Part shown: in pieces, positions 4,709 through 34,729 of the stretch
Numbering within the stretch: the first letter of the stretch is position 1
Layout of the letters: every line of letters starts with the position of its first letter
NCBI GenBank assembly: GCA_023247445.1
Contig: JAHFGL010000003.1
Span: 14,128-78,127, forward strand
DNA: 64,000 bases
Reading direction: 5' to 3'
From: Candidatus Omnitrophota bacterium
Lineage (GTDB): Bacteria > Omnitrophota > Gorgyraeia > Zapsychrales > Zapsychraceae
The notes under the pieces: model-generated
Told to the model about the DNA's origin: nothing
What the model saw: the letters and a program-made list of their open reading frames with translations, nothing else
Databases searched by the model: none
Made by a program: the position numbers and the translations under genes

Positions 4709-4712
4709 TTGT

Positions 4713-9039: not shown

Positions 9040-9046
9040 TCTAACC

Positions 9047-19990: not shown

Positions 19991-20418
19991 GGCTTTCTTC
20001 GGATTAATATCATTCCAAATTTATTTACAAACAAAGGTTCAGCATTTAATTCTTTAATTTTTTCAAGGGCCTGAAGATCGTTTTTACAGACTAAAAGAAT
20101 GAATTCATGATTTGTATTGTTGTAGTCAAGCACCGTGGGCGCCAAAATAAATTGAGCCTGAGAAAATAGTTTGTTTGATTCATCATCATTGGTGTCGCTA
20201 TAATAGCCCAAGAGGTTAATCTTTTTGGTAATGTTTTCTAATCCTAGGAATTTGCCCCCGATGACTTGATGCTTTAGATATTTTTTAAATGTTTTAATGC
20301 GGTTGACCTCGGGGATAAAGACAATAACATTAAAAATAATAATGGCCAGGAAGGAGACGATAAGAATTCTCTGGGGCAAAGATTTTGGCCAATTTATTTT
20401 AAATGAGGGCAACGTCAT
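19987..20418 (-). CDS. small single-TM protein; paralog of 23408-23869
   Basis: 143 aa; shares SQAQFILAPTVLDY / LQAQYFLAPTILEL with the 153-aa protein; 4-nt overlap with the downstream gene. Confidence 0.45.
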   Translation of the reverse strand: MTLPSFKINWPKSLPQRILIVSFLAIIIFNVIVFIPEVNRIKTFKKYLKHQVIGGKFLGLENITKKINLLGYYSDTNDDESNKLFSQAQFILAPTVLDYNNTNHEFILLVCKNDLQALEKIKELNAEPLFVNKFGMILIRRKP

Positions 20419-23411
20419 GGATTTATTTGCGGATTTGGTTTGGTGGCTAGTAGGGTGTTCGCCACATCAAAATTCTTTAAAACTTTTAGATTATATTTTG
20501 CCAAAACAAAGAAATCTTGGAGCCAGTCTTTACTTTCAGGTAAATGGCTCTTCGGGGTTGTTAGATAATAATAATCAAATATTCCATTGGGTCCTTGGCG
20601 GTTAACCTGTTTTAGCCATGTCAGATGATATTTTTCGCGGTAGAAATTAATACTTGGTTCAAAAAGCCAGTTGATCCCAAGGCTCACAGAATTTTCATTT
20701 AAGTTCTTCGTTTTGGGCGCATCTTGCATAATAAATTTTACGGCGTCTTTGGTTGACGCATCGAACTGCCATTCATAAAAGTATTTGATGTTAGCACACC
20801 CAAGAAAGTGGACGAAATAAATTGTTGTTAAAGCATAGAAAAAAGTTTGGGCGGATAATCTAAGGGCTTTCTGAGGAATCGATTGGGCTACTCCTATCAA
20901 GATGACCACAACCATCATAAAAAGAAAAACAAAATAAAGGGCTGTTCTTCCCATAACAAACTTTGTCCCTAAAATTTTCCATTGAAGGAAGATTAAGGAT
21001 GCGCAAAGAAATAGGATTGTTAGGATTCCCATTAAGAATTTATCAGTTGATGAGAACGGTTTTTTCATTATCAGTAGTTGCGCTAGATGGGCTACGCTAA
21101 GAGTTAAAATAGATATGATCAGAAATTTAATGATTAAAATAATATTTAGTCCATCGATAGCTTTTGCGTAAAGGGTGCTATCAATTAAACTTGTTACAGT
21201 GTCCGTCCAGAATCCTTTGTCCCCGCCATAATAAAGTTCATGATAAGTTAATAATTTTTGTAGCGGGACAATGTAAAGAGCCCCCACCACAATTGAACTT
21301 AAGATAATAGAAGGAAAGAGGTTTTTTAGTAGACGTTTAAATATTTCTTTTTCGCGAAATGATTGCAAAAGTTCAAAGCCAAATAGAAACATGATGATAG
21401 CTAGATGAATATGGAGAAAGGCGAGGTTAGATAAAGTAGCCAGAACTAATAACCAAGAGCAAAGGATTAAATTTTTTCTGTAAAGAAGAATGTCATTTGT
21501 CATCAGGATTTTAAAAAAATAATATAAACCCAAAGCCAGAAATCCTAGGCCCAACGCATACCCTCGGGCGCAGGAAAATAAATCTAGCATATAAGGATTG
21601 CACGTCAGCAAAAGAAGTCCTGCGATAAGACTTGGTCCACGTAGAACGATCGAACAAATTTTATAAGCAGCAAACAGAAAAAGCGCATGACCGATCAAAG
21701 CCGGAATTCTTATCGCAAATTCTGACAATCCAAAACAATTGACTGAAATTTTAATAAGTAAACTATTGAGCAGATGGTTGTTTGATGGGTGCGGCTGACT
21801 AAAGGTTAATATTTGAAGAAATGAGGCCGAGGCATGACGCAGATATGTTAACGCTTCATCATGGGTGATCGATATGTTGTAAGCACGGATGAGCGTATAA
21901 ATAAATAATCCCGCCATGATGAGAAAGCAGATCCAGTGAGTAATTCTATTTCTGTCATCCTGAGCGTAGCGAAGGATCTCAGGATTCTTACGTGGCTTGA
22001 GATTTTTTGCCTCGCTCTTGGCAGGCTCAGAATGTTGGGGTGATAACTTTGTTGTTTGGTCTGACCAATAACAAAAAAATGATAGAAAGAGAATGGAGGG
22101 CAAAAGCTGCAGGTAAAGGCGCTCCAGTGACATTGACAGCCACCAATGGATATCGATATTGGTGTTGACCAGATAGATAAAGATTAGGATCGCGATGTAA
22201 GTAATGATGGAGAAGCTAATAATTTTATTTTCTTTATAAAATAATTTTGGAAATTTTAGGATGCCCAACAAAATAACCAATAACCAAATAAAGCTCCATC
22301 GTTTATCAATGATCTCGTTGAATACTGTTTTTTGAATGAGCAGAAATTTTTGGGCCTGTGTAATGTTTAGCTGAACTGCTTTTAAGCTGGGAAGAATATC
22401 TTCGTTGGGCGGCGCCAGGAATACTTTGAAGATGATCGTTGGCAATGCGGCAACGATTAATCCTATCAACATAAAGCGAATCAGGCTCCAACTTGTTTTC
22501 TTGCTTATCGTTTTATCAAATATTAGATAAAGTGTCGTGACGCTTGCCAAGATCCCCGTCATTACCATGCCTTCATTCTTGATGAAGGACAAAAATCCCA
22601 GGAATAGTCCATAAAGAATAGCCACGCGGTGATCTTTTAAATGCATCATGATGATCATTGTGACAAATGCGGCCAAAAGATAATACGCTAAGACAATATC
22701 GGCATATTGGGCCGTCGACCAAAAAATGAAATAAGGATGAGATAAAAGTAATAAGGAGGCAAAAATTCCAGCGGGCTTTAAATTAAGATGCTTTAAGGCC
22801 GCATAGACTAAAAGACAGGCGCTGACCGTAAATAAAAAAGACGTTATAAGCGGAATTGGAAAAAGATTGTTGGCGAAAAAGGAATAAATCCAAACATTAA
22901 CAAATGGTAAGAAAAGTGGGTAGTCGGGATGAGTATGCCAGTTTAGGCCTGATAAAATATCTTGCCAGGGCGTTTGGCTAAAGAGGAGAAACTTGGTTTT
23001 TAAATTCCACATCGCCCAGGCGTCCCATTCGCCGTAGGGATGTTTTTGGATAAGGAATAAGATTATTCCAGACAAGATAAGCCAGCAACAAGCAATTAGA
23101 ATATCTAATGGTTTAAGATTTTTTATCGATTTTTTAAATTGGTCAACGAGTGATGAGGAGCGCAACGACGAGAAATTAAGATAGATTAATAGAATTAAGA
23201 AAAGAAGATTGGCCGTAACAATGGCCAACGCATTAAATTGACGCAGGAATAAGAAAGAAAAGAATGTAATAAATGAGGAGAATCCTAATCCAAGGCCAAG
23301 GGCGAGTAAGAGATGAAGGCTTAATGAAATTGGTTTTGTATTTTTTAATAAAAAAGAAATGGCGAGGAATCCAAGGCAAAAAGAAATAAGGTAGGGGAAA
23401 AAATGGATCAT
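20415..23411 (-). CDS. large polytopic membrane protein: N-terminal module like 18485-19990, an RPE/MITE-encoded linker, and a C-terminal GT-C (PMT/ArnT-like) glycosyltransferase module
   Basis: 998 aa; C-half has ISITHDEALTYLRHA and NNHLLNSLL first-loop motifs typical of GT39/GT83; linker ...HSEPAKSEAKNLKPRKNPEILRYAQDD is encoded by the repeat at 21954-22035. Confidence 0.55.
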   Translation of the reverse strand: MIHFFPYLISFCLGFLAISFLLKNTKPISLSLHLLLALGLGLGFSSFITFFSFLFLRQFNALAIVTANLLFLILLIYLNFSSLRSSSLVDQFKKSIKNLKPLDILIACCWLILSGIILFLIQKHPYGEWDAWAMWNLKTKFLLFSQTPWQDILSGLNWHTHPDYPLFLPFVNVWIYSFFANNLFPIPLITSFLFTVSACLLVYAALKHLNLKPAGIFASLLLLSHPYFIFWSTAQYADIVLAYYLLAAFVTMIIMMHLKDHRVAILYGLFLGFLSFIKNEGMVMTGILASVTTLYLIFDKTISKKTSWSLIRFMLIGLIVAALPTIIFKVFLAPPNEDILPSLKAVQLNITQAQKFLLIQKTVFNEIIDKRWSFIWLLVILLGILKFPKLFYKENKIISFSIITYIAILIFIYLVNTNIDIHWWLSMSLERLYLQLLPSILFLSFFCYWSDQTTKLSPQHSEPAKSEAKNLKPRKNPEILRYAQDDRNRITHWICFLIMAGLFIYTLIRAYNISITHDEALTYLRHASASFLQILTFSQPHPSNNHLLNSLLIKISVNCFGLSEFAIRIPALIGHALFLFAAYKICSIVLRGPSLIAGLLLLTCNPYMLDLFSCARGYALGLGFLALGLYYFFKILMTNDILLYRKNLILCSWLLVLATLSNLAFLHIHLAIIMFLFGFELLQSFREKEIFKRLLKNLFPSIILSSIVVGALYIVPLQKLLTYHELYYGGDKGFWTDTVTSLIDSTLYAKAIDGLNIILIIKFLIISILTLSVAHLAQLLIMKKPFSSTDKFLMGILTILFLCASLIFLQWKILGTKFVMGRTALYFVFLFMMVVVILIGVAQSIPQKALRLSAQTFFYALTTIYFVHFLGCANIKYFYEWQFDASTKDAVKFIMQDAPKTKNLNENSVSLGINWLFEPSINFYREKYHLTWLKQVNRQGPNGIFDYYYLTTPKSHLPESKDWLQDFFVLAKYNLKVLKNFDVANTLLATKPNPQINP
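21954..22035 (-). mobile_element. MITE-like element, copy 2 (short, degenerate), translated in-frame within the 998-aa ORF
   Basis: gtcatcctgagcgtagcgaaggatctcagg...gcaggctcagaatg; minus-strand translation RYAQDD from the TIR. Confidence 0.55.
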
Positions 23412-23869
23412 CGTTTTCTTTGCGTCAAGGCCTGTCCGTAGTCATTGTGGGCCACTGGACGGGCATTAATTTTTCTTAACACCATTGGAAGAATTGTATA
23501 ATCAGGAAAGTCGACAATGTTAAATACTGGATTGGGTCGATTGAGTTCTAAGATCGTTGGCGCCAAGAAATACTGTGCTTGTAAGAAAATCCCATCGTTT
23601 TTTTCTCGCGACATATCTTTGCTGGTTAAATAGCCAACACGTTCTATCCCAGCGAGTTTAGGTTTGAAGGTGAGAAATTGATACCCTGGCTCGTAATAAG
23701 TGCTATAACCACTGGCAACATGGGCCATGACACTAATATAAAGAGAAATAATATTATGGATAAGAAGTCCGCAGGTTAATGCCAAAATGAGGGTGTTTAC
23801 GTGAAACCATTTTTTGGGGAACATAGGCGAAGCTATTTTATTACTGGACCTTTGAGAAAACAAGCTCAA
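23408..23869 (-). CDS. small single-TM protein; paralog of 19987-20418
   Basis: 153 aa; overlaps the start of the 998-aa gene by 4 nt. Confidence 0.45.
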   Translation of the reverse strand: MSLFSQRSSNKIASPMFPKKWFHVNTLILALTCGLLIHNIISLYISVMAHVASGYSTYYEPGYQFLTFKPKLAGIERVGYLTSKDMSREKNDGIFLQAQYFLAPTILELNRPNPVFNIVDFPDYTILPMVLRKINARPVAHNDYGQALTQRKR

Positions 23870-24139: not shown

Positions 24140-25156
24140 TTGGTTCATGTCGGGATTATCGGTTGTGGTCATTGGGGGCCCAACCACGTTCGTATTTTTT
24201 CACAGCTCTTAAATTCTAAGGCCTTGATGTGCGCTGATTTTGATGAAGGCCGGCTTAAAACGATAAAAAGTTTATTTCCTCAGATTGAGACAACCACAGA
24301 TTATAAGAAGATTTTAGCGAATAAAGAGATCCATGCGGTCTGCATCGCGACTCCAACCAATACACATTATTCGATAGCCAAAGAAGCCTTGGAACATGAC
24401 AAACATGTCTTGTGTGAAAAGCCTCTTGCGTTAACTTCCTCCGAATGTGAAGAGCTCAAAAATCTGGCCCGTGACAAAAATCGGCTGCTTATGGTTGGAC
24501 ATGTTTTTCTTTTTAATAAAGGAATTTTGTGGCTTAAGGAATATATTCAGTCAGGGGAGTTGGGGCATATTCATTATGCGTATGCTACAAGAACTAATCT
24601 GGGGCCGTTTCGTTATGATGTTAATGCGCTTTGGGATTTGGCGCCGCATGATATTTCAATCTTTAATTTTTTGTTTAATAGTGCGCCGGTAAATGTCTCG
24701 GCCCGCGGACAAAAATGTTTGGGGAATTCGCAGGAAGATTTGGCCTTTGCCACGTTAGAGTATCCGGGGAATTGTATGGCGAACGTCCATGTCAGCTGGC
24801 TTGATCCTAAAAAGGTTCGACAGATTACAATCGTTGGTGATAAGAAAATGGTGGTTTGGGATGATTTGGATAATCTCGGGCCCATTCAGCTTTATGATAA
24901 ACATGTCGAGAAAACGTCAACCTTCTATGCCACGTATGGTGAATTTCAGTTATTGTCTAAAGAAGGAAATATTACGATTCCCAAAATAGGATTTAATGAG
25001 CCCCTTAAAGCGCAGGCTGAATATTTTATTAATTGTATTGAGCAAAATAAAAATCCTGATGTCTGTGACGCGCAAAAAGGATTGGACGTCACAAAAACTT
25101 TGTGTGCGATTCAGCAATCTATGGATCGTAAAGGTGAATGCGTGGTGGTTAAGTGA
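24140..25156 (+). CDS. Gfo/Idh/MocA family NAD-dependent oxidoreductase (WbpB-like UDP-sugar 3-dehydrogenase candidate)
   Basis: VGIIGCGHWGPNHVR Rossmann motif and EKPLALTSSECEEL block; TTG start after aggag. Confidence 0.75.
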   Translation: MVHVGIIGCGHWGPNHVRIFSQLLNSKALMCADFDEGRLKTIKSLFPQIETTTDYKKILANKEIHAVCIATPTNTHYSIAKEALEHDKHVLCEKPLALTSSECEELKNLARDKNRLLMVGHVFLFNKGILWLKEYIQSGELGHIHYAYATRTNLGPFRYDVNALWDLAPHDISIFNFLFNSAPVNVSARGQKCLGNSQEDLAFATLEYPGNCMANVHVSWLDPKKVRQITIVGDKKMVVWDDLDNLGPIQLYDKHVEKTSTFYATYGEFQLLSKEGNITIPKIGFNEPLKAQAEYFINCIEQNKNPDVCDAQKGLDVTKTLCAIQQSMDRKGECVVVK

Positions 25157-25710
25157 GTTATTTTAAACATGAAAAAGCGATGGTCCATCCTGACGCCAAA
25201 ATTGGGGAAGGAACGCGTTGTTGGGCCAACACCAATGTTCAAGCAGGCGCTGTCATTGGTCAAGGATGTAATATCTGCGATGGCAGCTTTGTTGAAAAGG
25301 GGGCGGTCGTTGGCCATCATGTGACGATCAAACACCATGTCTCTATTTTTGATGGGGTGACTATTGAAGATGATGTTTTTATTGGATCCAATATTGCTTT
25401 TATCAATGATCGTTATCCGCGCAGCAATCGTAAAGATGCATGGACGCTTGAGAAGACGTTGGTTAAAAAGGGAGCAACCATTGGAACAAATGCCGTTATC
25501 TTATGTGGCTTAACGATTGGTCAATATGCGCTTGTGGCCGCAGGAGCGGTTGTTGTTAAGAATGTTTTAGATCACGAGGTTGTGGCTGGAAATCCTGCAC
25601 GAGCGAAAGGTTATGCCTGCCACTGCGGACGTCCGCTTGATGCCAAATATAAATGTGCGAAATGTAAACGGCAATATCGTAAGAAAAAATTTGGATTGGA
25701 AGAAAAATAA
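25153..25710 (+). CDS. hexapeptide-repeat (left-handed beta-helix) acetyltransferase, WbpD/PglD-like, with a C-terminal Cys-rich tail
   Basis: repeated [LIV]G.....G hexads (IGSNIAFINDRY, IGTNAVILCGLTIGQYALVAAGAVV); tail CHCGRPLDAKYKCAKCKRQY; 4-nt overlap with the upstream gene. Confidence 0.7.
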   Translation: MSYFKHEKAMVHPDAKIGEGTRCWANTNVQAGAVIGQGCNICDGSFVEKGAVVGHHVTIKHHVSIFDGVTIEDDVFIGSNIAFINDRYPRSNRKDAWTLEKTLVKKGATIGTNAVILCGLTIGQYALVAAGAVVVKNVLDHEVVAGNPARAKGYACHCGRPLDAKYKCAKCKRQYRKKKFGLEEK

Positions 25711-25717
25711 ATTTATT

Positions 25718-25890
25718 GTCATTCTTCGTTCCGCAAAGCGGAACGAAGAATCTCAGGACACTTAAAACTTATGGGATCCTTCGCATCAACTTTCCTTTAA
25801 TATTTTAGAGGAAGTTGGTACGTACTGACTTCATCTAAATATAAATTATGGAAAAGTCAGTACGCTACGCTCCATTAGACGAGAGCGTCG
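25718..25890 (-). mobile_element. MITE-like element, copy 3 (opposite orientation to copy 1)
   Basis: gtcattcttcgttccgcaaagcggaacgaagaatctcagg...gggatccttcgc...ggtacgtactgacttcatctaaatataaattatggaaaagtcagtacgctacgctc. Confidence 0.7.
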
Positions 25891-25903
25891 AATAAAATAT
25901 AAA

Positions 25904-26635
25904 ATGTCGAAAATTCTGGTCTGTCCGGTTGCCTTTAATGAACATGTGAAGTTAAAGAATGCGATTGAACGCTTTTTGAAATCTGCTGCTTATGGCAAAG
26001 TCGATTATTTAATCGTTGATGACGGTTCAACTGACGGCACAACCGAAATGATTGTAAGTTACGCCTCTTCGGGAGTTAAGACGATTAAGCATGGGCAGCG
26101 AAGCGGCGTTGGCGTTGCGATTCGCACGGCAATCAACCATGCTAAAGTTCGTGGTTATGAAATTTTAGTGATCATGGCGGGCAATGATAAAGATAATCCC
26201 GAAGAGATTCCACGGTTGATTGATCCGATTGTTAAAGAAGGTTATGATTTTGTGCAAGGTTCACGTTATAAGGGCGCCAATGGCATCGGCGGTGATATGC
26301 CGTTTTATCGAAAGGTAGCAACGAAGCTTCATCCACTTCTTATGTCGATTATTACGGGCCAGAAGATAACAGACTCGACTAATGGTTTTCGAGCTTTTCG
26401 ACTTTCGATTTTTGATAATAAAGATATTAATATTGATCAACCGTGGCTGGACAAATATGAACTTGAGCCGTATTTGCTTTTTAAAGCAATTAAGTTGGGA
26501 TATAAATTTCAAGAAGCGGCTGTTACAAAGATTTATCCATCTAAGAAGCTTGGTTACACCAAGATGCAACCGTTTATCGGCTGGTGGAGCATTTTAAGAC
26601 CAGTAATTTTTTTAGGTTTAGGAATCAAAAAATAA
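25904..26635 (+). CDS. GT2 family glycosyltransferase, polyprenyl-phosphate sugar synthase-like (DPM1/CsbB/ArnC-like)
   Basis: DYLIVDDGSTDGT nucleotide-sugar-binding motif; 243 aa with a C-terminal hydrophobic tail. Confidence 0.75.
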   Translation: MSKILVCPVAFNEHVKLKNAIERFLKSAAYGKVDYLIVDDGSTDGTTEMIVSYASSGVKTIKHGQRSGVGVAIRTAINHAKVRGYEILVIMAGNDKDNPEEIPRLIDPIVKEGYDFVQGSRYKGANGIGGDMPFYRKVATKLHPLLMSIITGQKITDSTNGFRAFRLSIFDNKDINIDQPWLDKYELEPYLLFKAIKLGYKFQEAAVTKIYPSKKLGYTKMQPFIGWWSILRPVIFLGLGIKK

Positions 26636-26666
26636 TTTACATCAACATATAACAAAGGATACCCAC

Positions 26667-26942
26667 ATGAAACAAAAACATCTTCTAATAGTATTAACGG
26701 TGTTGTTGGTTGGTTGTGCTTATAAAGGACAGCAGGCGCTTGAAACCTATATTGATGAACCCGAAACAATTTTGCGTGATCCTCATTTTACTAATTATCA
26801 AGAAGCCAGTGATCATTTAGAAAGCGAATATTTAAAGAAGACGATCACCTATGCCGAGTATGTAGAAAAGAAAAAAGAGCTGGATGATAAGTACGCGAAA
26901 GAAGTCCATGAGCGTGATTCAATCGTCGCTCCGGGGCAATAA
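26667..26942 (+). CDS. small lipoprotein, unknown function
   Basis: signal peptide plus lipobox LLVGCAYKG. Confidence 0.4.
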   Translation: MKQKHLLIVLTVLLVGCAYKGQQALETYIDEPETILRDPHFTNYQEASDHLESEYLKKTITYAEYVEKKKELDDKYAKEVHERDSIVAPGQ

Positions 26943-26943
26943 T

Positions 26944-27678
26944 ATGCGCCTTTATGGTAAAAATCCTGTTATTGAACGCTTACGTTCGAATCCCACCACG
27001 ATAAAGAAAATATTTATTGAAGATAATTTCTCAGAGGCTTCGTATATCCATCAGAAGGCGAAGAAATGGGGGATCTCTGTTTTTATTATCACGCGAGCTA
27101 GAATGATTAAGATCGCGCGCAATATTAATACTCAGGGGATTTTAGTTGAGGTCGATGATTTTGTTTACACGCCTTACGATGAACTTCTTGAAGATGCGCG
27201 AGATAAACATAAGTGTATTTTGTTTTTAGATGAATTAAATGATCCGCAGAATTTGGGCGGCATTATCCGTAGTGTTGCTTGTTTGGGAAAGTTTTCGATT
27301 GTCCTGCCCACCCATGATTCGGTCAGCGTCACTGATGCTGTTTTACGTGTTGCCTCCGGTGGTGATAATTATGTCAAGATTGCCAGGGTTTCTAATTTAA
27401 CGAATGCGATTAAATCCGCCAAAGATTCAGATTTTGAGATTGCCGGTGCTGTCGTTGAGGGTGGAGAATCGTTAATTGATGTTACGTTTCCATATCCATT
27501 AGGACTGGTGGTTGGCTCGGAACAAAAGGGAATTCGTGAGGTGATTCGTAAACATTTAGATTTACAGGTAACCATCCCAATGGCGGCTGCTTCTGGGCTG
27601 TCTTATAACGTGACCCACGCCACAACCATGTTTTGCTATGAAATCACACGACAAAAAAAGCTCAGAGAAAAAAAGTAA
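26944..27678 (+). CDS. TrmH/SpoU family RNA 2'-O-methyltransferase (RlmB-like)
   Basis: MRLYGKNPVIERL N-terminus; LGGIIRS and VVGSEQKGI SPOUT motifs; ATG at 26944 directly after the upstream stop. Confidence 0.7.
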   Translation: MRLYGKNPVIERLRSNPTTIKKIFIEDNFSEASYIHQKAKKWGISVFIITRARMIKIARNINTQGILVEVDDFVYTPYDELLEDARDKHKCILFLDELNDPQNLGGIIRSVACLGKFSIVLPTHDSVSVTDAVLRVASGGDNYVKIARVSNLTNAIKSAKDSDFEIAGAVVEGGESLIDVTFPYPLGLVVGSEQKGIREVIRKHLDLQVTIPMAAASGLSYNVTHATTMFCYEITRQKKLREKK

Positions 27679-28258
27679 AGTATCGGCGGAAACGCATCTC
27701 ATCAATTTATTTGCTGAAGCGGGCCTTTTAAAAAAGGTCAAGCGCAGCGGTTGGTGGGTGGTTGGTATCCGCAATCCTGAAAGTGTGGCTGATCATTCTT
27801 TTCGCTGCGCCATTATCGGGTATCACATTGCCCAATTAGAAAAGGTTGACCCTTATAAAGTTTTGGTGATGACTTTATTTAATGACATCCATGAAGCGCG
27901 GATTAATGATTTGCATAAAATGGGTCATTATTACATTGATTTTAAAGATGCGGAAAAGAAAGTTTTCAAAGATCAGGTAAAATATTTGGGAAGTAAGGTT
28001 AAGCTCGAGATGGAGGATTGCCGCCGAGGATATGATGAGCAGAAGACTAAAGAAAGCATCGTCGCCCGCGATGCGGATATTTTAGAGTGTTTGCTGCAGG
28101 CAAAAGAATATTATGAGGAAGGCTATACGAAGGCCAAGAAATTTTTCCAAAAAGCCCCGGGTTATTTGAAAACAAAAACCGCAAAGCGTCTTTGGCAACA
28201 GATTAAACGTTGGGATAGCTCAAAGTGGTGGGAAGATGTGGTTAAATTTGAAAGATAG
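27638..28258 (+). CDS. HD-domain phosphohydrolase (YfbR-like 5'-deoxynucleotidase family)
   Basis: RSGWWVVGIRNPESVADHSFRCAIIGYHIA HD motif region. Confidence 0.6.
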   Translation: MKSHDKKSSEKKSKVSAETHLINLFAEAGLLKKVKRSGWWVVGIRNPESVADHSFRCAIIGYHIAQLEKVDPYKVLVMTLFNDIHEARINDLHKMGHYYIDFKDAEKKVFKDQVKYLGSKVKLEMEDCRRGYDEQKTKESIVARDADILECLLQAKEYYEEGYTKAKKFFQKAPGYLKTKTAKRLWQQIKRWDSSKWWEDVVKFER

Positions 28259-29120
28259 AGAAGTTAAATTCCAAATTACAAATCCAAAACCACAAACAAA
28301 TTCTAAATTCCAAACTCCAAATCATAAACGTTTTGGGCTTGGTGTTTGTTTATTGTCTGTGATTTGGAATTTGTGGTTTGTGCTTTTTCTTTCAGGTTGT
28401 GGAACTTTCGGAAATTATAATGCCGCCACGGGCCATCGAGAATTCATCGCCATCCCGACCAATCAAGAAGTTTCCATGGGGCAGGGAATTCATCAAGATA
28501 TTCTTAAGAAATATAGACTTTGTACAGATCAATCCAAGGTTCAACGAGTCGAGCGAATTGGTCTGCGGGTTGCCCAAATCTCGGACCGTCAGGATTATCA
28601 ATACCATTTTTATGTTTTAGAGAGTGATGATCTTAATGCTTTTACTACGCCGGGTGGAAGTGTTTATCTTTATACAGGGTTACTAGATAAGTTAACGACC
28701 GATGATCAAGTGGCGGCTGTTATCGCCCATGAGATCGGTCATTGCGCGGCTCGTCACACGATTAAAAAATATCAAGCGGCGCTTGGTTATCAATTGGTCG
28801 GCAACATTCTTTTAAGCCAAATTCAAGGATCCCAAGCTAAACAAGTTACTTCCTTGGGATCAAATTTAGCGATGAATCTTGTTTTTTCTGCTTATGGCCG
28901 TGGCGATGAATATGAAGCTGATCGTTTGGGTATTAAATATTTGTATTTAGCTGGATATGATTTGGAAGGGATGGTTGAAACGTTGGGGGTATTAAAGCAG
29001 GCCTCCAAAGGCTCTAAACCACCGCTTATTTTAAGCAGTCATCCCTACGTGGAAGATCGTATTGAAGAAGTGAAAAAAGAAATTGTCAAAGTCCGACAAC
29101 AATTTAAAGATGATTCGTAA
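28236..29120 (+). CDS. M48 family zinc metallopeptidase (BepA/LoiP-like) with lipoprotein-type signal; true start uncertain
   Basis: AHEIGHCAARH (HExxH), signal/lipobox LFLSGCGT; the first ~40 codons of the tracked ORF translate the hairpin repeat, so the real start is probably an in-frame TTG/GTG near 28340-28350. Confidence 0.7.
   Translation: MWLNLKDREVKFQITNPKPQTNSKFQTPNHKRFGLGVCLLSVIWNLWFVLFLSGCGTFGNYNAATGHREFIAIPTNQEVSMGQGIHQDILKKYRLCTDQSKVQRVERIGLRVAQISDRQDYQYHFYVLESDDLNAFTTPGGSVYLYTGLLDKLTTDDQVAAVIAHEIGHCAARHTIKKYQAALGYQLVGNILLSQIQGSQAKQVTSLGSNLAMNLVFSAYGRGDEYEADRLGIKYLYLAGYDLEGMVETLGVLKQASKGSKPPLILSSHPYVEDRIEEVKKEIVKVRQQFKDDS
28266..28382 (+). promoter_or_regulatory. hairpin element, copy C, overlapping the 5' end of the M48 peptidase ORF
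   Basis: aaattccaaattacaaatccaaaaccacaaacaaattc...ttggtgtttgtttattgtctgtgatttggaatttgtggtttgtg; shares tattgtctgtgatttgg exactly with copy A. Confidence 0.35.
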
Positions 29121-29198
29121 AATTCTTTTTTAAACATTTTTTAGCAAAAAAATAATGTTAAGATAAAAACGTTATCCGCGATACAAAGGAAGATTGGA

Positions 29199-29501
29199 AT
29201 GGAACGCATAGGGATCGCCGCCAGCAAAATTTCCAAAGGAAATCTTTTTCTTTATAATCTCAATGTTGTTTTGATCTCATTTTTGTTTTCGTTGTTTATT
29301 TTTGTGATCGCAGGATCAACGGTTCTTTTTGCTCTGATGATCATTGGCTATGTGGCCGGTGAGATTAAGGGGGCTGATTTTGATAAGAAATGGTTTTCGA
29401 TTTTTAGTATTTGTATGGTGACATTAACTATTTTGATTGGCTTATTTAACCTCTTTGCCATTTCAAGGAATTTAAAATTTAAAAAAGGAAAAGGCCTTTA
29501 A
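29199..29501 (+). CDS. small membrane protein, unknown
   Basis: 100 aa, 2-3 TM segments. Confidence 0.3.
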   Translation: MERIGIAASKISKGNLFLYNLNVVLISFLFSLFIFVIAGSTVLFALMIIGYVAGEIKGADFDKKWFSIFSICMVTLTILIGLFNLFAISRNLKFKKGKGL

Positions 29502-29513
29502 AATCTAAAAACT

Positions 29514-31832
29514 ATGCTCAATAAACACATTGTCTTCAAAGATTTTGTTCAACAGTTATCGATTGGCGCGCTACGTGCATCAGCGACAAAAAAGGCAAAG
29601 GTTTTGTATGCCAATAGCACATTTTGTCAAATGTTTGGCCACAAGGAGCGGGATGTTTGGGATTTATATGTTGAGGAATTGTTTGCAGAACGTCGGCGCT
29701 ATTTGATGTTTAATAAAGATCTGTTAGAGAACAATGTTGTCAAGAACTTTGAGATTCGTTTAAAAGGCCCTGCGAAGAAAACATTTTGGGGTTCGATCTC
29801 TGCTTTAACTGTCTTTGATGATCGAGGAAAGCCAAAATATTTTGATCTAGTCATTGAAGATATTTCGATTCAAAAAAAATATGAGAAGAGTCTTATTGAA
29901 TCAAAAGAATTATTTCAGACGGTCTTTAATAATACCGCGGCCGCCATTACGGTTACTGATAAAGACGAACGAATTATCGCCTGGAATCCTTTTGCTGAAA
30001 AAATGCTTGGATTAACTAAAGAAGAGCTTTTTAATAAACCGGTCAAAGATCTGTATCCTCCCAAAGAATGGCGTCGAATTCGAGCCTTTCGTATCCGTCA
30101 ACGAGGGATGCTTGCTGATATTGAAATCAAAATTTATAAAAAAAGCAATGGCACGCTTGATGCCAGCTTGTCAATTTCTGTTCTTAAAGATTCTGAAGGT
30201 AATGTGATTGGATCGATCGGAATTATTCGTGACATCACCGCGCAAAAAGCAGCGGAACGCAGAATTAAAGATTCAGAAAACAAGATTCGTGTCATTCTTG
30301 ATAACTCAGCGGCCGCCATCACCTTAATTGATGAGAAAGAACGGATTATTTCTTGGAATAGGTTCACCGAACATTTGTTGGGGATGAAAAGAAGCGATCT
30401 TTATTTAAGGCCGGTCAGCACTCTTTATCCAGAAGAAGAGTGGAAGAAGATTCGCGCTGAAAATATTCGTACAATTGGATCCAAACATCATTTAGCGACT
30501 AAGGTGATTAATAAAAGGGGTAATATTATTGATATTGACCTTTCTATTAACGTTTTGCGTGACTCCCAGGATAAGATTGTTGGGTCTGTTGGGATTATGC
30601 AAGATATTACTGAGCAAAAGCGTTTCCAGGAAATATTGATTCAAGCAAAGTTAGCTGCGGAGGAGGCCAATAGCGCCAAATCACTTTTCTTAGCCAATAT
30701 GTCGCATGAAGTTCGTACCCCGATGAATACAATTCTCGGCATGATTGATTTAACGCTAGATACGACCTTGGATGAGGAGCAGCGCGATAATCTCGTCGTG
30801 GCTAAAGAGGCCGCTGGTAATTTGCTGAGCCTTATCAACGACATTTTAGATCTTTCCCGTGTTGAGTCAGGAAAACTTACGTTAGAAAATATTGAATTTC
30901 ATTTACCTAATATTTTAAAGAATGTTTGTAAGGGGCTATCCGTTTTAGCGCGTGGCAAAAATTTAGAATTAATTCTAAAAATTCATCCCGATGTCCCTGA
31001 ACTTCTAGAAAGTGATCCTGTGCGACTGCGGCAGATTTTGATTAACTTAATTAATAACGCGATCAAATTTACACCCAAAGGAAAAATTGTTATTGAGGTT
31101 AAGGCTTCGGCAAAAACGGATCAAGAGATTACGCTCACATTTGCCGTCATTGATCAAGGAATTGGAATCGCCAAGGACAAACAAGATTTTATCTTTGAGG
31201 CTTTTACTCAAGCGGATACCTCGACAACCCGGCGTTTTGGCGGCACGGGTCTTGGGCTTGCCATTTCTAAGCGGTTAGTGGAAATGATGGGTGGGCGCAT
31301 TTGGGTTGAGAGTGAAGAAGAAAAAGGAAGCACATTTTATTTTACTGGAGTTTTCAAATATAAAGATAAAGCGTCTTCAGCTGTTTTAACGGAGGAAGAA
31401 TCTCCCGCAGGCATTGAAGATCCGGTGTTAGCCCAACGTATTAAAAGTTTACGGATTCTTTTAGCAGAAGACAATATTGTTAATCAGAAAATTTCGATGC
31501 GTTTATTAGAGAAGCAAGGTTGGCATGTAGTGACGGTTGATAATGGCAAGGAAGTTGTTGATCGCATGAGTAAGGATCATTTTGATATTGTCCTTATGGA
31601 TGCCCAAATGCCTATTTTGGATGGTTTTGAGGCGACAAAAATTATCCGTGATAATGAAAAGCATACGGGTAAACATATCCCCATCATTGCCTTAACAGCC
31701 CGTGCCATGCAGGAAGACCGTAAGCGTTGTTTAGATGCGGGAATGGATGGATATGTGGCGAAACCCATCGATCGCAAAAAACTTTTTGAAGAAATCATCA
31801 ATGTTTTTAAAAAAGGAATTGTTCATGAATGA
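29514..31832 (+). CDS. hybrid sensor histidine kinase (PAS domains, HisKA, HATPase_c, C-terminal receiver)
   Basis: [11 protein letters not shown]-box, [12 protein letters not shown]2 box, receiver [13 protein letters not shown]...[19 protein letters not shown]. Confidence 0.85.
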
Positions 31833-32178
31833 TGAGATATTAGATTTGAATGAGTTTTTAGAAAGAGTTCAAGACGATAAAGAATTATTGCTTGAACTTT
31901 TTGATATTTTTATCGCTGACTACAAAGAAAAAAGTCAATTGCTGCAAACAGCCATCGACACCAATAATTATGAGCAAATTAAAAATATTGCCCATTCGCT
32001 GAAAGGATCATCAGGAAATATTTCAGCAAAACTCTTGCGGGCAAGCTGTTTAAAGTTAGAAGAGATAGGGAAAAATGGTGACTTGGCGCAAGCCAAGGAA
32101 TATTTGATTCAGATGGATAAACACTTTCAAGATCTTTTAGTTCGTATTGAGGCCACTAAGCAACAGTTAAAGAGTTGA
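31825..32178 (+). CDS. Hpt (histidine phosphotransfer) domain protein
   Basis: HSLKGSSGNISA conserved His motif; ATG at 31825 overlaps the kinase stop. Confidence 0.6.
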   Translation: MNDEILDLNEFLERVQDDKELLLELFDIFIADYKEKSQLLQTAIDTNNYEQIKNIAHSLKGSSGNISAKLLRASCLKLEEIGKNGDLAQAKEYLIQMDKHFQDLLVRIEATKQQLKS

Positions 32179-34046
32179 AAAATCCTTTTCTATCAGAACT
32201 TCAGTTGCGTCTTAAAGCCTTAACTCAAAGGCGAATAACCATTATTTTATGCGTGGTGGGATTCTTGGCGTATGCCAATGCTATTCCACATCCTTTTGTC
32301 CACGATGATGTTGTTTTTATCCAGCAGAATCCTCACATCGCTGATTTAAATTTAAAAAATATTTTTTGGCAAACAATCCCTCAGCATGGGCAACTCGGCT
32401 TCATTAATAATTATTATCGTCCGCTTTTAGAGTTTTTTAACCGTCTTCAATATCAAATCTTTCATCTTAATCCATACGGATATCATTTAACCAATGTTGT
32501 GATTCACTTGATCAACGGACTTTTGGTTTATCAACTTGTTTATCTTTTAAGAAAAAGAAGGGCGTTGTTGTTTAAAGATGCGGCTTGGATTTCTGAGGAT
32601 GGGTGGGACAAAGGGTTTGCGTTAACAGCGGCTTTACTATTTTTAGTTCATCCTGCTCAATCGGAGGCGGTGGCTTGTATTTCCGGGATCTCCAATCTTT
32701 TAAATACGCTATTATCTTTTGGAGTGCTTTATTTGTATTTAACTTCTTTTGGTGATGATAAAAAGCGTAATTTGACTAGATATGCTTGGTCGCTGGTTTT
32801 GTACTTTTTGTCTTTGTTATCCAAAGAACAGTCGGCAATATTGCCACTGATTATTGTTTTGTGTGAATGGGCATTACCAGCCCGCGGGCAGAATCAATCA
32901 AGTAAGGCTTTAAAGTTAAGTGGTTATTTTCTCATCGTAGGATTTTATTTCTTAATGCGGCAGGCCATTTTGGGGCATTTTTTAACACCGCCGTTGGATT
33001 CTCCCGCTGAGATGCAACTACGTTTGTTAGCTTTACCGAGAATATTTTTTACATACCTTGGTATTCTTTTTGTCCCACATGATTTGCACTATTACCGCTG
33101 TCTCGATTTTCTTAAGCCATATATATTTTCTCTCGTTTTTTTCTCTTTGTTTATCATCGTCATTGGACTACTCATCAAATTGATAGCCCCAGCCCGGCGT
33201 AGATTATTGTTTTTTGGATTGGGATGGTTTTTGATCGCCCTTTTGCCTGTGCTTAATATTTTTCCGTTGGTTAATGAATATTCTCTTTTATTAACGGCCG
33301 AACATTTCCTCTATTTTGCCATTGTTGGAATGATTATTTTTATCTTAAGCCTAGGTGAATCCTGGATTGAAAGTGTTAGGAAGATGGAGGCGGTCTATAT
33401 TGTTTCCATGATACTCGTCAGCGTCCTTGTCACGTTTTTTTTAATGACGATTAAACAAAATACTTATTGGCGAGGAGAAATTCCGCTTTTTAAAAGAACG
33501 ATTAAGTATGAACGCAATTTTGGTCGAGCCCGTATTCTTTTGGCCAAGGCCTATGCGCGCAGTGGCCAATATGAGGAAGCCATAAGGCAATACGGCTGGG
33601 CGTATGACATCATGAAAAAATATGCCGATAAAGTAAAAGATGAAAAGATAAAGGCCTTTTATTTAGACTATATTAAGGAAATATATTTGGATTTAGCCCA
33701 TTGTCATGAAGCGATGGGAGATTTTGAAGCGACCGCCAAGTATTATCTTAAAGTCATTCAAATCGATCCTCAGAATAGTTTTCTTTACAGTAATTTGGGT
33801 CTTAATTATTTAAAGATTAATAATATCAATAAGGCTCTTGGCGCTTTTGAAAAAGCGGTTGCGTTAAATGATAATGATTTAATGGCCAAGAATAGTTTGG
33901 CTATTTGCTATAAAGAGGTCGGACGATTAGAAGAGGCCCAAGAGCTTTTGCGCGAGATTGTTGAACGTGATCCACAGTCTGCCTCAGCTAAACAAAATTT
34001 AGAAAATCTTATTTCTCCCAGTAATTTATCAAATGAGACACCATAA
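32175..34046 (+). CDS. TMTC-like GT-C glycosyltransferase (DUF1736-type TM domain) fused to C-terminal TPR repeats
   Basis: first-loop PHPFVHDDVVFIQQNP (F-x-DD...N motif of TMTC/PMT-like), about 10 TM segments, then TPRs (AKAYARSGQYEEAIRQY, ...GLNYLKINNINKALGAFEKAVALN); TTG start. Confidence 0.5.
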   Translation: MKNPFLSELQLRLKALTQRRITIILCVVGFLAYANAIPHPFVHDDVVFIQQNPHIADLNLKNIFWQTIPQHGQLGFINNYYRPLLEFFNRLQYQIFHLNPYGYHLTNVVIHLINGLLVYQLVYLLRKRRALLFKDAAWISEDGWDKGFALTAALLFLVHPAQSEAVACISGISNLLNTLLSFGVLYLYLTSFGDDKKRNLTRYAWSLVLYFLSLLSKEQSAILPLIIVLCEWALPARGQNQSSKALKLSGYFLIVGFYFLMRQAILGHFLTPPLDSPAEMQLRLLALPRIFFTYLGILFVPHDLHYYRCLDFLKPYIFSLVFFSLFIIVIGLLIKLIAPARRRLLFFGLGWFLIALLPVLNIFPLVNEYSLLLTAEHFLYFAIVGMIIFILSLGESWIESVRKMEAVYIVSMILVSVLVTFFLMTIKQNTYWRGEIPLFKRTIKYERNFGRARILLAKAYARSGQYEEAIRQYGWAYDIMKKYADKVKDEKIKAFYLDYIKEIYLDLAHCHEAMGDFEATAKYYLKVIQIDPQNSFLYSNLGLNYLKINNINKALGAFEKAVALNDNDLMAKNSLAICYKEVGRLEEAQELLREIVERDPQSASAKQNLENLISPSNLSNETP

Positions 34047-34048
34047 TT

Positions 34049-34729
34049 ATGACAACTATTAATATTGTTATCGGCATTGGAATTCTTTTTATATTGGTTT
34101 TGTTGGTGGGTCTTTTTTTTATGCCGACTGAAAAGAAAGTTGAGAAGAAAAAGAAAAAAGAGAAGACTGAACCCGAAGCTGACACGAAAGATTGGCAGCA
34201 AACGGTTACGAAGCTTCAGCACCATGTTCAATCGCTCCATAAACAAATTGAGGATCTTGACCGCAGCGTCAAATCAAAAGATAAGCAACTTATCATCGAG
34301 ATAGCTAAGGCCAAGAAGTTACAAGAAAAAATAACGCAAGAGCGCAGTTGGCATGAAAAAGAAAAGTCTGAGGTGGATCGTAAAGGAGGCGAGTTTAAGA
34401 AATTGCAGGACGAACTTGCTAAGTCACAAGATCATTTTTCAAAAGAACATGCTTTAACACTGCGTTTGGAACAGGAACTTAAAGAGCTTAGATTGGTGAT
34501 GGATTCTACGAATAGTCAACGGCGTGCCGCTGAAGCCGAGAGTGCGCAACTAAAAGCTCAAGTTGAAAGTTATCGTAAAGACACAGCGCAGTTACGTAGA
34601 GAAAATACGGAATTATCCAAGAAAAAAGAAGATGCCTCGTGGATTGCGAAATCTGAATATGAGCGCGTTGAGAAATTGTTGAGGGAAAAGGAAAAAGAAT
34701 TTGAGCGCATCAAGCGAGAGGCCAGTTAG
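34049..34729 (+). CDS. membrane-anchored coiled-coil protein
   Basis: N-terminal TM, then a K/E-rich heptad-like region. Confidence 0.4.
   Translation: MTTINIVIGIGILFILVLLVGLFFMPTEKKVEKKKKKEKTEPEADTKDWQQTVTKLQHHVQSLHKQIEDLDRSVKSKDKQLIIEIAKAKKLQEKITQERSWHEKEKSEVDRKGGEFKKLQDELAKSQDHFSKEHALTLRLEQELKELRLVMDSTNSQRRAAEAESAQLKAQVESYRKDTAQLRRENTELSKKKEDASWIAKSEYERVEKLLREKEKEFERIKREAS

Follow-up and report, generated by a model that had tools for sequence, protein, structure and literature searches.

The animal TMTC1-4 proteins are protein O-mannosyltransferases (CAZy GT105) characterized by DUF1736 and TPRs, and full-length prokaryotic homologues have already been noted, for example the deltaproteobacterial AMJ42_05695 (Eisenhaber et al. 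2021, PMC7801869). The TMTC superfamily, with 100,588 clusters at 50% identity (E ≤ 1e-3), is a very large one, and the literature searched gave no biochemical data on a TMTC homologue from bacteria. In the three-component periplasmic glycosylation systems GtrA/GtrB/GtrC, CsbB-GtcA-YfhO and ArnC-ArnE/F-ArnT, a GT2 polyprenyl-phosphate sugar synthase works with one or more GT-C enzymes. We analyzed a 64,000-nt sequence from a Candidatus Omnitrophota bacterium (GCA_023247445.1, contig JAHFGL010000003.1, positions 14,128-78,127, forward strand), hereafter the window, in which region 24140-34046 had been proposed to encode a glycosylation system. All open reading frames of the initial annotation were found where it had placed them. 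The 623-aa product of the last of these genes (32175..34046, + strand) was assigned by profile, fold and motif evidence as a TMTC-like GT-C glycosyltransferase with TPRs; it is a true relative, from a bacterium, of the TMTC enzymes that glycosylate proteins in animals.

This protein has about 11 TM helices in residues 1-445, followed by about four to five TPRs in about residues 450-613. When its membrane domain was compared by hhalign with the N-terminal domains of animal TMTC1-4, a full-length match was obtained (99.9%, E 2.7e-34, 389 columns), and an HMM made from TMTC sequences scored 87 bits. The signal was specific, since neither ArnT nor any other membrane protein of the window gave one against the same profiles. 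AF2 returned pLDDT values of 87 and 82, and the best 18 Foldseek matches were all GT-C enzymes (STT3/PglB, ArnT, Pmt4 and EmbB). The N-terminal 445 residues had no Pfam match of their own, 7 of 16 family members matched PMT_2, and DUF1736 (PF08409) matched neither this protein nor any of the 16. Failure to align with DUF1736 had been put forward as a refuting test; we consider that test mis-specified. The TMTC homology and the TPR fusion of the initial annotation hold; the protein has neither a DUF1736 match nor the DW motif of TMTC. From the positive charge of the N-terminus and the count of about 11 TM helices, the TPRs are expected on the periplasmic side.

Conservation was examined in 16-40 sequences at about 45% identity. 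HDD43-45, YYRP80-83, H159-P160-x-Q162-x-E164 and EHFLY376-380 were invariant, as were K217-E-Q219 and L304-H-Y-Y-R308 save for E218 and H305 (at least 90% each). The near invariance of HDD, YYRP, KEQ and EHFLY indicates purifying selection on an active site. Several motifs of TMTC1-4 recur in the Omnitrophota protein, namely FVHDD...N (M1), YRP (M2), H..N..H, HPxxxEAV and KEQ (M4). In M7 the E-H-x-x-Y is kept, but the conserved Arg of TMTC is replaced by His377. The RxD of M3 corresponds to ISN, and the L(C/S)xDW of EL4 to LHYYR, so that DW, whose D is the predicted metal ligand of TMTC, has become YR. The position of LHYYR resembles the H-E-H...R-Y region of ArnT, as described in PMC7801869.

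The second enzyme is a 243-aa GT2 polyprenyl-phosphate glycosyltransferase of the DPM1/ArnC/PpgS-like type (25904..26635, + strand; PF00535). Its best PDB sequences were the dolichol-P-mannose synthase 5MLZ (1.7e-11) and ArnC (about 1e-9). The better NCBIfam matches were polyprenyl-phosphate glycosyltransferases (dolichyl-P hexose transferase, PpgS, AglJ and ArnC), all under cut-off, with other GT2 families forming a weak tail at E 1e-7 or worse. The profile search thus places it in the polyprenyl-phosphate sugar synthase branch rather than the cellulose- or chitin-synthase branch, and the earlier description as a polyprenyl-phosphate-sugar synthase-like enzyme is borne out at the level of sequence. 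Residues D39 D40, N94 K96 D97, Q118-Y122, D157-x-T-N-G and R163 were invariant and D95 and F162 nearly so; the motifs DxD, GSRY and DxxNGF were likewise conserved, invariant or nearly so. A hydropathy scan predicted no TM helix; the C-terminal tail is hydrophobic.

Directly upstream of the GT2 gene lie two genes that overlap by 4 bp. The first (24140..25156, + strand) encodes a 338-aa Gfo/Idh/MocA NAD oxidoreductase (GFO; PF01408, PF22725 and PF02894) resembling UDP-GlcNAc 3-dehydrogenases. Its best NCBIfam model was NF040723, the archaeal UDP-GlcNAc 3-dehydrogenase (192 bits against an equivalog cut-off of 450, and under every other equivalog cut-off as well), its best PDB sequence was 7BVJ (E 9e-21), and no WbpB/WlbA structure was among its PDB sequence matches at E ≤ 1e-10. 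By these best matches GFO is nearer to GnnA and archaeal-type enzymes than to WbpB, so that the proposed WbpB-like oxidoreductase keeps its N- and C-terminal family domains but not its closest relative. The second gene (25153..25710, + strand) encodes a 185-aa left-handed beta-helix N-acetyltransferase (LbH; Pfam Hexapep) of the WlbB/QdtC/FdtD class for NDP-3-amino sugars. It matched 4MZU (3e-41), 7S43 (3e-39), WlbB 3MQG (7e-34), 3FS8 (1e-14) and also QdtC, in agreement with its annotation as a WbpD/PglD-like hexapeptide acetyltransferase. Both families would fit the suggested 3-oxidation and N-acetylation steps on a 3-amino sugar. The aminotransferase expected between them had been reported missing, and we likewise found no DegT-type sugar aminotransferase among 59 ORFs scanned in the window (these include every ORF of at least 120 aa apart from a few short ones, most of which overlap other genes), and none in the block of about 45 syntenic genomes.

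The genes between GT2 and GT-C are of various kinds. A predicted lipoprotein of 91 aa with a signal peptide ending in LLVGC (26667..26942, + strand) had no significant family match, and tblastn found it after GT2 in roughly half of 80 genome loci. It is followed by genes for a SpoU RNA 2'-O-methyltransferase, an HD_3/YfbR-like phosphohydrolase and an M48 peptidase (26884..29120, + strand; Pfam), whose link to glycosylation is not obvious. Upstream of the kinase is a 100-aa membrane protein with 2-3 TM helices by hydropathy (29199..29501, + strand), without a family match and present in 49 of 55 loci. The hybrid histidine kinase (HK; 29514..31832, + strand) has three PAS domains, HisKA, HATPase_c and REC, and was found in 50 of 57 loci. 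As annotated, it is followed by an Hpt phosphotransfer protein gene (31825..32178, + strand; 117 aa, PF01627, HSLKGSSGN motif) that shares 4 bp with the start of the GT-C gene; the Hpt gene lay directly upstream of GT-C in 69 of 71 loci, and several relatives without the kinase retain it. Downstream of GT-C is a membrane-anchored coiled-coil protein of 226 aa (34049..34729, + strand; 59 of 63 loci), the coiled coil being predicted cytoplasmic because a Lys-rich segment comes after the N-terminal TM helix.

Family and fold, catalytic motif conservation, gene packing and gene order are direct observations; that the block encodes a system dedicated to protein glycosylation, of a general kind already known, is plausible. 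We tentatively favor, at somewhat less than even probability, a lipid-monosaccharide-dependent periplasmic glycosylation route encoded within it. The DPM1/ArnC-type GT2 would transfer one sugar from a nucleotide sugar to polyprenyl phosphate at the cytoplasmic face, a flippase would turn the lipid-linked sugar over, and the TMTC-family GT-C, whose catalytic DD loop and TPRs would face the periplasm, would move the sugar to an extracytoplasmic acceptor, most likely a protein selected by the TPR domain. GFO and LbH probably tailor the donor to a 3-acetamido derivative of UDP-GlcNAc, which would require an aminotransferase encoded elsewhere. We infer that the GT2 feeds the TMTC-like GT-C, and in the same way which sugar is carried, the flippase, the protein acceptor and any control by the HK-Hpt phosphorelay. 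Protein O-glycosylation by the GT-C is suggested solely by the TPR fusion and by eukaryotic analogy. The window contained no detectable GtrA, GtcA or ArnE/F-like flippase. Counting against the route are the missing DegT enzyme, the presence of LbH in only 38 of 43 syntenic loci (missing from 5), the lack of a DUF1736 match and of the TMTC DW and RxD motifs, and the TMTC-like genes of other phyla, which do not have these neighbors.

A competing explanation, which we regard as only slightly less probable, is that the genes have independent functions and are neighbors in a tightly packed stretch of chromosome that rearranges slowly. GFO and LbH would then supply a diacetamido sugar to LPS or capsule whose assembly takes place on Und-PP in the cytoplasm, GT2 would be a housekeeping lipid-sugar synthase serving several GT-Cs, and the TMTC-like enzyme would use any lipid-sugar pool present. 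The gene order GFO-LbH-GT2-lipoprotein-SpoU-HD-M48-small membrane protein-HK-Hpt-GT-C-coiled-coil protein-AlaA-like aminotransferase (an AlaA/TyrB-type amino-acid enzyme) recurs in about 70 species of Omnitrophota and is retained throughout the phylum in a block of about 14 kb, with GFO conserved at its left end. GT2 was upstream of GT-C in 43 of 44 loci with sufficient flank, but SpoU (49/50), HD (51/52) and the AlaA-like aminotransferase (51/57) were conserved in place to the same degree, as was M48, and all block genes are tightly packed. Linkage in the block is therefore non-specific, synteny is unable to show a dedicated system, and co-location does not mark out one for glycosylation. Synteny in related contigs also continues into ABC-F, pseudouridine synthase and HhH-GPD genes; moreover, GT2 identity is 71-83% (best 120 homologues) against 37-55% for GT-C, in keeping with a core enzyme that has many clients, and at least five other GT-C candidates share the window. 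Against independent functions, retention of this order in about 70 species-level genomes at 32-44% GT-C identity is unusual for unrelated genes, and GFO, LbH and GT2 abut or overlap in most species (median gaps of 8 bp from GFO to LbH and -1 bp from LbH to GT2, about 45 species).

The further GT-C-like proteins, of which at least four had been claimed, do exist as candidates, but their matches are faint. A 153-aa protein and a 998-aa protein with about 20 hydrophobic segments (20415..23869, - strand) are transcribed divergently from the block and conserved upstream wherever the flank is long enough; the latter matched PMT_2 (ArnT/PMT-like) at 24 bits, below the gathering threshold of 26.1, making it a weak candidate for an alternative GT-C partner of GT2. 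Next to them is a tandem paralogous pair of 143 aa and 501 aa, the latter multi-TM (18485..20418, - strand; 31% identity, E 2e-46, with the 998-aa protein over residues 4-454 of the latter). Each of two paralogous units (1614..7863, + strand) encodes a membrane protein resembling YfhO (724 and 745 aa, 52% identical, C-terminal Pfam matches only, 31.8 and 23.7 bits) and, after it, a protein with TPRs (306 and 307 aa); in a 388-aa protein, the first TM helix is followed by a WLDEQ motif. These candidates allow an Arn-like modification of lipid A, LPS or glycan, in which GT2 would place the GFO/LbH amino sugar on undecaprenyl phosphate for the 998-aa or YfhO-like proteins and the TMTC-like enzyme would be no partner. 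The 998-aa gene is the GT-C candidate nearest to GFO-LbH-GT2, ArnC is one of the closest solved relatives of GT2, and the chemistry would run in the Arn order of oxidation, amination, N-acylation, transfer to Und-P and GT-C. However, the PMT_2 score is below threshold, hhalign aligned the 998-aa protein with neither ArnT nor TMTC, related loci L003 and L004 have a different upstream neighbor, and no ArnA, ArnB, ArnD, ArnE or ArnF homologue was seen in the window; we consider this unlikely. That the TMTC-like protein is inactive and serves the HK-Hpt phosphorelay as a membrane-anchored TPR scaffold or as a sensor partner, as the persistent Hpt gene and the altered DW and RxD motifs might suggest, is highly improbable given its near-invariant catalytic motifs and a cytoplasmic Hpt protein opposite predicted periplasmic TPRs.

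The tentatively preferred route can be compared with known systems. Like TMTC1-4, the Omnitrophota protein has a GT-C domain of about 11 TM helices and then extracytoplasmic TPRs, but only about four to five of them, and since the protein is bacterial it would take its sugar from a bactoprenyl phosphate and not from a dolichyl phosphate. It shares the GT-C plus TPR architecture of the prokaryotic homologues from uncultured bacteria (PMC7801869), and differs from them in that its gene lies downstream of HK-Hpt in a conserved block specific to the phylum. The resemblance to the three-component systems extends to the YfhO-like and PMT_2-like proteins of the window, and the upstream tailoring enzymes recall ArnA/ArnB; unlike in those systems, seven genes separate GT2 from the TMTC-like gene, and the 5MLZ and ArnC chains are membrane-spanning and longer (322-374 aa). 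The UDP-2,3-diacetamido-sugar pathways (WbpB/WbpE/WbpD = WlbA/WlbC/WlbB, the archaeal route and GnnA/GnnB) likewise combine a Gfo/Idh/MocA 3-dehydrogenase-like enzyme with a WlbB-class N-acetyltransferase, here from overlapping genes, but include the linking aminotransferase. In actinobacterial protein O-mannosylation, with the polyprenyl-P-mannose synthase Ppm1 and PMT, a short, soluble or peripheral GT2 similarly feeds a PMT-clan GT-C protein glycosyltransferase, whose extracytoplasmic domain is a different one, without TPRs. The Omnitrophota GT-C plus TPR protein resembles TMTC far more than it does PMT or ArnT.

We compared the membrane domain of the 623-aa GT-C protein encoded at 32175-34046 (+) with animal TMTC proteins, using as reference the published alignment of the N-terminal domains of animal TMTC1-4 (supplementary file of PMC7801869). 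A profile of 16 family members aligned in hhalign with the eight animal TMTC domains over 389 of 430 columns (99.9 %, E 2.7e-34). The window sequence alone reached E 8e-21 against the animal profile in hhalign, and it scored 87 bits with an HMM built from the eight animal TMTCs. As controls, ArnT and the window's five other multi-TM proteins gave no signal against these TMTC profiles. The likeness of this membrane domain is specific to TMTC and is not a general GT-C likeness.

The initial annotation had called this protein TMTC-like and expected its first-loop motif to align with DUF1736. Pfam recognized residues 451-607 through TPR_1, TPR_2 and related models, and residues 1-445 matched no model, DUF1736 included. 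PF08409 (DUF1736) gave no match to the window protein at E <=1 (above about 0.1 most matches are lost to the HMMER filters) or to the 16 family members at E <=10, nor was it found in the best 120 homologues (precomputed Pfam) or in 10 more distant relatives; PF13231 (PMT_2) matched 7 of the 16 members, with a best value of 8e-8. The DUF1736 region still aligned within the global hhalign comparison, where the position of the animal DW is taken by Y307-R308. Animal TMTCs carry DW as motif M5 of the DUF1736 loop, and PF08409 fails to match because M5 is replaced by Y307-R308, with H305 before it, giving the EL4 motif LHYYR. DUF1736 is in fact the loop joining TM7 to TM8, so a first-loop motif was the wrong place to look for it. 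Thus the homology to TMTC extends over the full length, while the DUF1736 definition, taken literally, is not satisfied; for this reason we use the name TMTC-like and regard 32175-34046 as a bacterial relative of TMTC rather than as a strict member of the family that DUF1736 defines.

The AlphaFold (AF2) model of the TMTC-like protein has about 11 TM helices and, after TM11, about nine TPR helices, with a pLDDT of 87 at full length and 82 for the membrane domain alone. From the number of TM helices and the positive-inside rule, the TPR array is predicted to be extracytoplasmic. Full-length queries in Foldseek and in the PDB sequence-profile search returned TPR proteins only, and both searches were rerun with the N-terminal domain alone. 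The top 18 Foldseek matches of the membrane domain were then all GT-C enzymes, namely STT3/PglB, ArnT, Pmt4 and EmbB (E 3e-3 to 0.13, TM-score 0.34-0.51), whereas its profile found no solved sequence relative in the PDB at E <=10. The protein is predicted to adopt a GT-C membrane fold of the PMT clan, in which TM1 is followed by an acidic catalytic loop. H43-D44-D45 and Y80-Y81-R82-P83 were invariant in the 16-sequence alignment. Among 40 homologues of 38-54 % identity, the invariant residues were H43-D44, Y80-Y81-R82-P83, H104/N107/H111, H159-P160-x-Q162-x-E164, K217, L304, Y306-Y307-R308 and H377-F378-x-Y380, and D45, E218, Q219, H305, E376 and L379 were each present in at least 90 % of the sequences.

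The 243-aa GT2 protein (25904-26635, +) matched PF00535 at 77.7 bits. Its only solved sequence relatives were the Pyrococcus dolichyl-P-mannose synthase (PDB 5MLZ) and ArnC, and its top five NCBIfam matches were all polyprenyl-phosphate glycosyltransferases (dolichyl-P hexose transferase, PpgS, AglJ, ArnC and PgfS), at scores of no more than 70 bits against curated cut-offs of 325-529 bits, which is short of equivalog-level sugar specificity. The DxD-type and acceptor-loop motifs DD, N-D-K-D, QGSRY and D-x-T-N-G-F-R were invariant in 17 homologues (D95 and F162 nearly so), and identity to the best 120 homologues was 71-83 %. These data place the GT-A domain of GT2 closest to enzymes with polyprenyl-phosphate acceptors (DPM1/GtrB/ArnC/PpgS type). 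Because its solved relatives, NCBIfam matches and motifs are all of this type, a cellulose- or chitin-synthase-like enzyme is excluded and the proposed polyprenyl-phosphate-sugar synthase-like assignment is retained. The ORFs of the region also lie where the initial annotation had placed them, and their families hold up.

Upstream of GT2 is a putative sugar-modification pair, which had been described as a WbpB-like oxidoreductase and a WbpD/PglD-like acetyltransferase lacking the aminotransferase between them. The oxidoreductase, GFO (24140-25156, +), has the N- and C-terminal domains of the Gfo/Idh/MocA family. Its best NCBIfam model was the archaeal UDP-GlcNAc 3-dehydrogenase (192 bits, equivalog cut-off 450) and its best solved sequence was 7BVJ (9e-21), which we take to be GnnA, the UDP-GlcNAc 3-dehydrogenase of Acidithiobacillus. 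WbpB and WlbA structures were absent from its PDB sequence matches at E <=1e-10, and "UDP-GlcNAc 3-dehydrogenase-like" is therefore a better name than "WbpB-like". The acetyltransferase LbH (25153-25710, +), a left-handed beta-helix protein whose gene overlaps that of GFO by 4 bp, fared as described: its closest solved relatives (3e-41 to 1e-14) were 4MZU (3e-41), 7S43 (3e-39), WlbB 3MQG (7e-34) and QdtC, all of which presumably N-acetylate NDP-3-amino sugars, and 3MQG was the only one named in the search output as an LPS-biosynthesis acetyltransferase. LbH scored 98 bits against the NeuD/PglB/VioB subfamily of NCBIfam (cut-off 161) and is probably an N-acetyltransferase of the WbpD/WlbB class.

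The absence of the aminotransferase was borne out, since a scan of 59 window ORFs gave no PLP enzyme of the DegT/WbpE type. The genes for GFO and LbH sit side by side in about 45 related loci, and in no relative does a DegT-type gene lie between them. A class I/II aminotransferase at 34701-35885 was considered for the missing role and rejected, its closest relatives being AlaA and tyrosine/aspartate aminotransferases. Since no such enzyme was found and 5 of 43 loci lack LbH, the sugar pair either needs a gene elsewhere or departs from the WbpB/E/D scheme.

Homologues of the TMTC-like protein carry the names Omnitrophota or Omnitrophica, and their surroundings are conserved. A gene order common to five encoding contigs, and clearest in four relatives, runs from GFO through (LbH), GT2, a small lipoprotein, a SpoU methylase, an HD hydrolase, an M48 peptidase and a small membrane protein to a hybrid histidine kinase (HK), an Hpt phosphotransfer protein, (0 or 3 genes), the GT-C gene, a 226-aa coiled-coil protein and an aminotransferase. 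We scanned species-representative genomes, obtained 80 loci, and counted each neighbor, in those loci whose flank was long enough, as present when its side and strand were as expected. GT2 was present in 43 of 44 loci and LbH in 38 of 43; the corresponding counts were 49/50 for SpoU, 51/52 for HD, 31/53 for M48, 49/55 for the small membrane protein, 50/57 for HK, 69/71 for Hpt, 59/63 for the coiled-coil protein and 51/57 for the aminotransferase, which is AlaA/TyrB-like. Genes further downstream of the aminotransferase were kept in 60-70 %. Packing was tight throughout, with median gaps of 8 bp (GFO-LbH), -1 bp (LbH-GT2), about -15 bp (Hpt-GT-C) and -41 bp (SpoU-HD).

This order of about 12-14 kb (24140-35885 in the window; loci L006-L083) is shared by about 70 species-level Omnitrophota genomes despite a GT-C identity of 32-44 %, and it includes the SpoU and HD genes, which have no obvious glycosylation link. 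The five most distant loci (27-31 % identity), labeled Gammaproteobacteria, Gottesmanbacteria, "uncultured bacterium", Ratteibacteria and, in one case, Omnitrophota, had none of the block's neighbors, and one of them had a weak GT2 match about 8 kb away. The conserved order is real and striking, yet it fails to separate glycosylation genes from RNA-modification or housekeeping genes; since it holds equally for SpoU and HD, synteny cannot prove a dedicated system. Promoter and terminator counts were no higher than in shuffled sequence and thus carry no information on operon boundaries.

Several variations of the block were observed. The LbH-GT2 gap is 193 bp in the window (25710-25904) and at most 30 bp in 40 of 47 relatives; the extra length could reflect an insertion specific to this lineage, or a promoter. 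HK is absent from L008, L010, L012, L015, L023, L024 and L029, where Hpt still lies directly upstream of the GT-C gene, an odd tie between an orphan Hpt and a glycosyltransferase; L024 (9336-11551) is an example, and its GT-C is only 521 aa long, with fewer TPRs. In L004 (8282-10016) and L005 (8317-10016), Hpt and the GT-C gene are separated by three genes, whose products are a protein of about 340 aa, one of about 80 aa and a DUF1318 protein, and in other loci of this type Hpt lies 1.4-2.5 kb upstream. A DUF1318 protein beside a small protein recalls E. coli ydbH-ynbE-ydbL, which we take to act in outer-membrane lipid homeostasis.

The reading best supported, which we hold tentatively and at a little short of an even chance, is that GT2 supplies a lipid-linked sugar used by the TMTC-like enzyme in the periplasm. 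GT2 would make a polyprenyl-P-monosaccharide, the TMTC-like enzyme would take a donor of this type on the periplasmic side, its periplasmic TPRs would pick the acceptor, most likely a protein, and GFO/LbH might tailor the sugar donor. No flippase resembling GtrA or ArnE/F turned up when the small conserved proteins were scanned with Pfam.

The main alternative, which we hold to be slightly less probable, is that the synteny is inherited and the functions are independent; the very highly conserved GT2 would then be an all-purpose donor synthase shared by this genome's many GT-C candidates. The initial annotation had counted at least four further GT-C-like membrane proteins, and five candidates were found: two YfhO-like proteins, a PMT_2-like 998-aa protein, its 501-aa paralogue and a 388-aa protein, which would be the clients. 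Their candidate GT-C status comes from weak Pfam matches, and hhalign gave nothing for them against the TMTC-like, TMTC and ArnT profiles (an LPG_synthase_TM protein was the non-GT-C control). An Arn-like modification of lipid A/LPS through the adjacent PMT_2-like protein is unlikely.

Quite improbable, taken with all its steps jointly, is an Arn-like route directed at proteins, in which UDP-GlcNAc would be 3-oxidized, aminated by an unlinked enzyme and N-acetylated to a diacetamido sugar, which GT2 would load onto undecaprenyl phosphate for flipping; the TMTC-family enzyme would then attach this one residue to envelope proteins that its periplasmic TPRs pick out, and expression would be coupled to the PAS-kinase/Hpt phosphorelay next to it. 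That the TMTC-like protein, with its predicted catalytic loop, is a non-catalytic scaffold is very improbable.

The window holds further envelope-related and duplicated genes. At 18485-23869 (-) lies a tandem duplication of [153-aa + 998-aa] and [143-aa + 501-aa] genes: the 501-aa protein aligns with residues 4-454 of its 998-aa counterpart (31 %, E 2e-46), which looks like two fused multi-TM modules, and the two small proteins have motifs in common, such as (L/S)QAQ(Y/F)(F/I)LAPT. At 1614-7863 a two-gene unit is duplicated. Its first gene encodes a YfhO-like membrane protein, of 724 aa in one copy and 745 aa in the other (52 % identity), and its second a TPR protein of about 306 aa; GT-C candidate and TPR partner are separate genes in this unit, unlike in the fused TMTC-like protein. 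Envelope-related genes at 7873-10528 and 12867-13940 encode the 388-aa multi-TM protein, whose first TM helix is followed by WLDEQ, a 493-aa protein with a GDSL/SGNH hydrolase domain at its C-terminus, and the protein with an MprF-type LPG_synthase_TM (flippase-like) domain. Elsewhere are a 1526-aa ORF (44998-49578) in which Pfam recognizes a low-molecular-weight phosphotyrosine phosphatase domain (residues 576-726) and nothing else, a SpoVG homologue (57886-58266; SpoVG match 1-118) with an apparent zinc-ribbon insertion (DZR/Zn_Ribbon, residues 57-79), and, near the window start, an ORF of the "23S rRNA-intervening sequence protein" family (866-1270; PF05635, 100 bits).

Glycosylation by a GT2 and a GT-C enzyme in a three-component scheme is well known in bacteria (Gtr, Arn, CsbB/YfhO), and the annotation is correct, with a standard glycosylation inference. 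Bacterial TMTC relatives are extremely numerous: this membrane-domain profile matches about 100,000 clusters at 50 % identity (100,588, with 74,622 at E <=1e-10). Full-length prokaryotic TMTC homologues (GT-C + TPR) have been noted without characterization (Eisenhaber et al. 2021, PMC7801869), and "GT105", the CAZy name of the TMTC family, occurs in papers on bacterial genomes and gut metagenomes; no study in the literature searched assigned a function to any bacterial TMTC homologue. In Omnitrophota the context is defined and kept across the phylum: a lipid-sugar synthase of very high conservation, two sugar-tailoring enzymes and a phosphorelay provide concrete candidates for donor and regulation. 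Were the link between this context and the TMTC-like protein borne out, the family would have a first function, and there would be a clue to how the envelope of this uncultured phylum works; the Arn-like protein route, if true, would assign a function for the first time within the very large prokaryotic TMTC-like family and would be a core Omnitrophota envelope trait. The significance would grow considerably if donor and protein acceptor were demonstrated.

Compared with the WbpB/WbpE/WbpD module, a WbpD/WlbB-class LbH is present here, the agreement of GFO is at the level of the Gfo/Idh/MocA family, and no WbpE-type aminotransferase was found among the window ORFs scanned. Compared with animal TMTC, for which seven motifs (M1-M7) have been defined (PMC7801869), the Omnitrophota protein retains M1 (DD), M2 (YRP), M4 (KEQ) and the HPxxxEAV stretch; H43-D44-D45 aligns with FV(H/F)DD of M1, and Y80-Y81-R82-P83 with SYRP of (S/H)KSYRP in M2. 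M7 is present as E-H-x-x-Y, with His377 in place of the conserved Arg of TMTC, and M3 (RxD) has become ISN. What is particular to the Omnitrophota protein is LHYYR in EL4 in place of DW, together with its phylum-wide conserved context.
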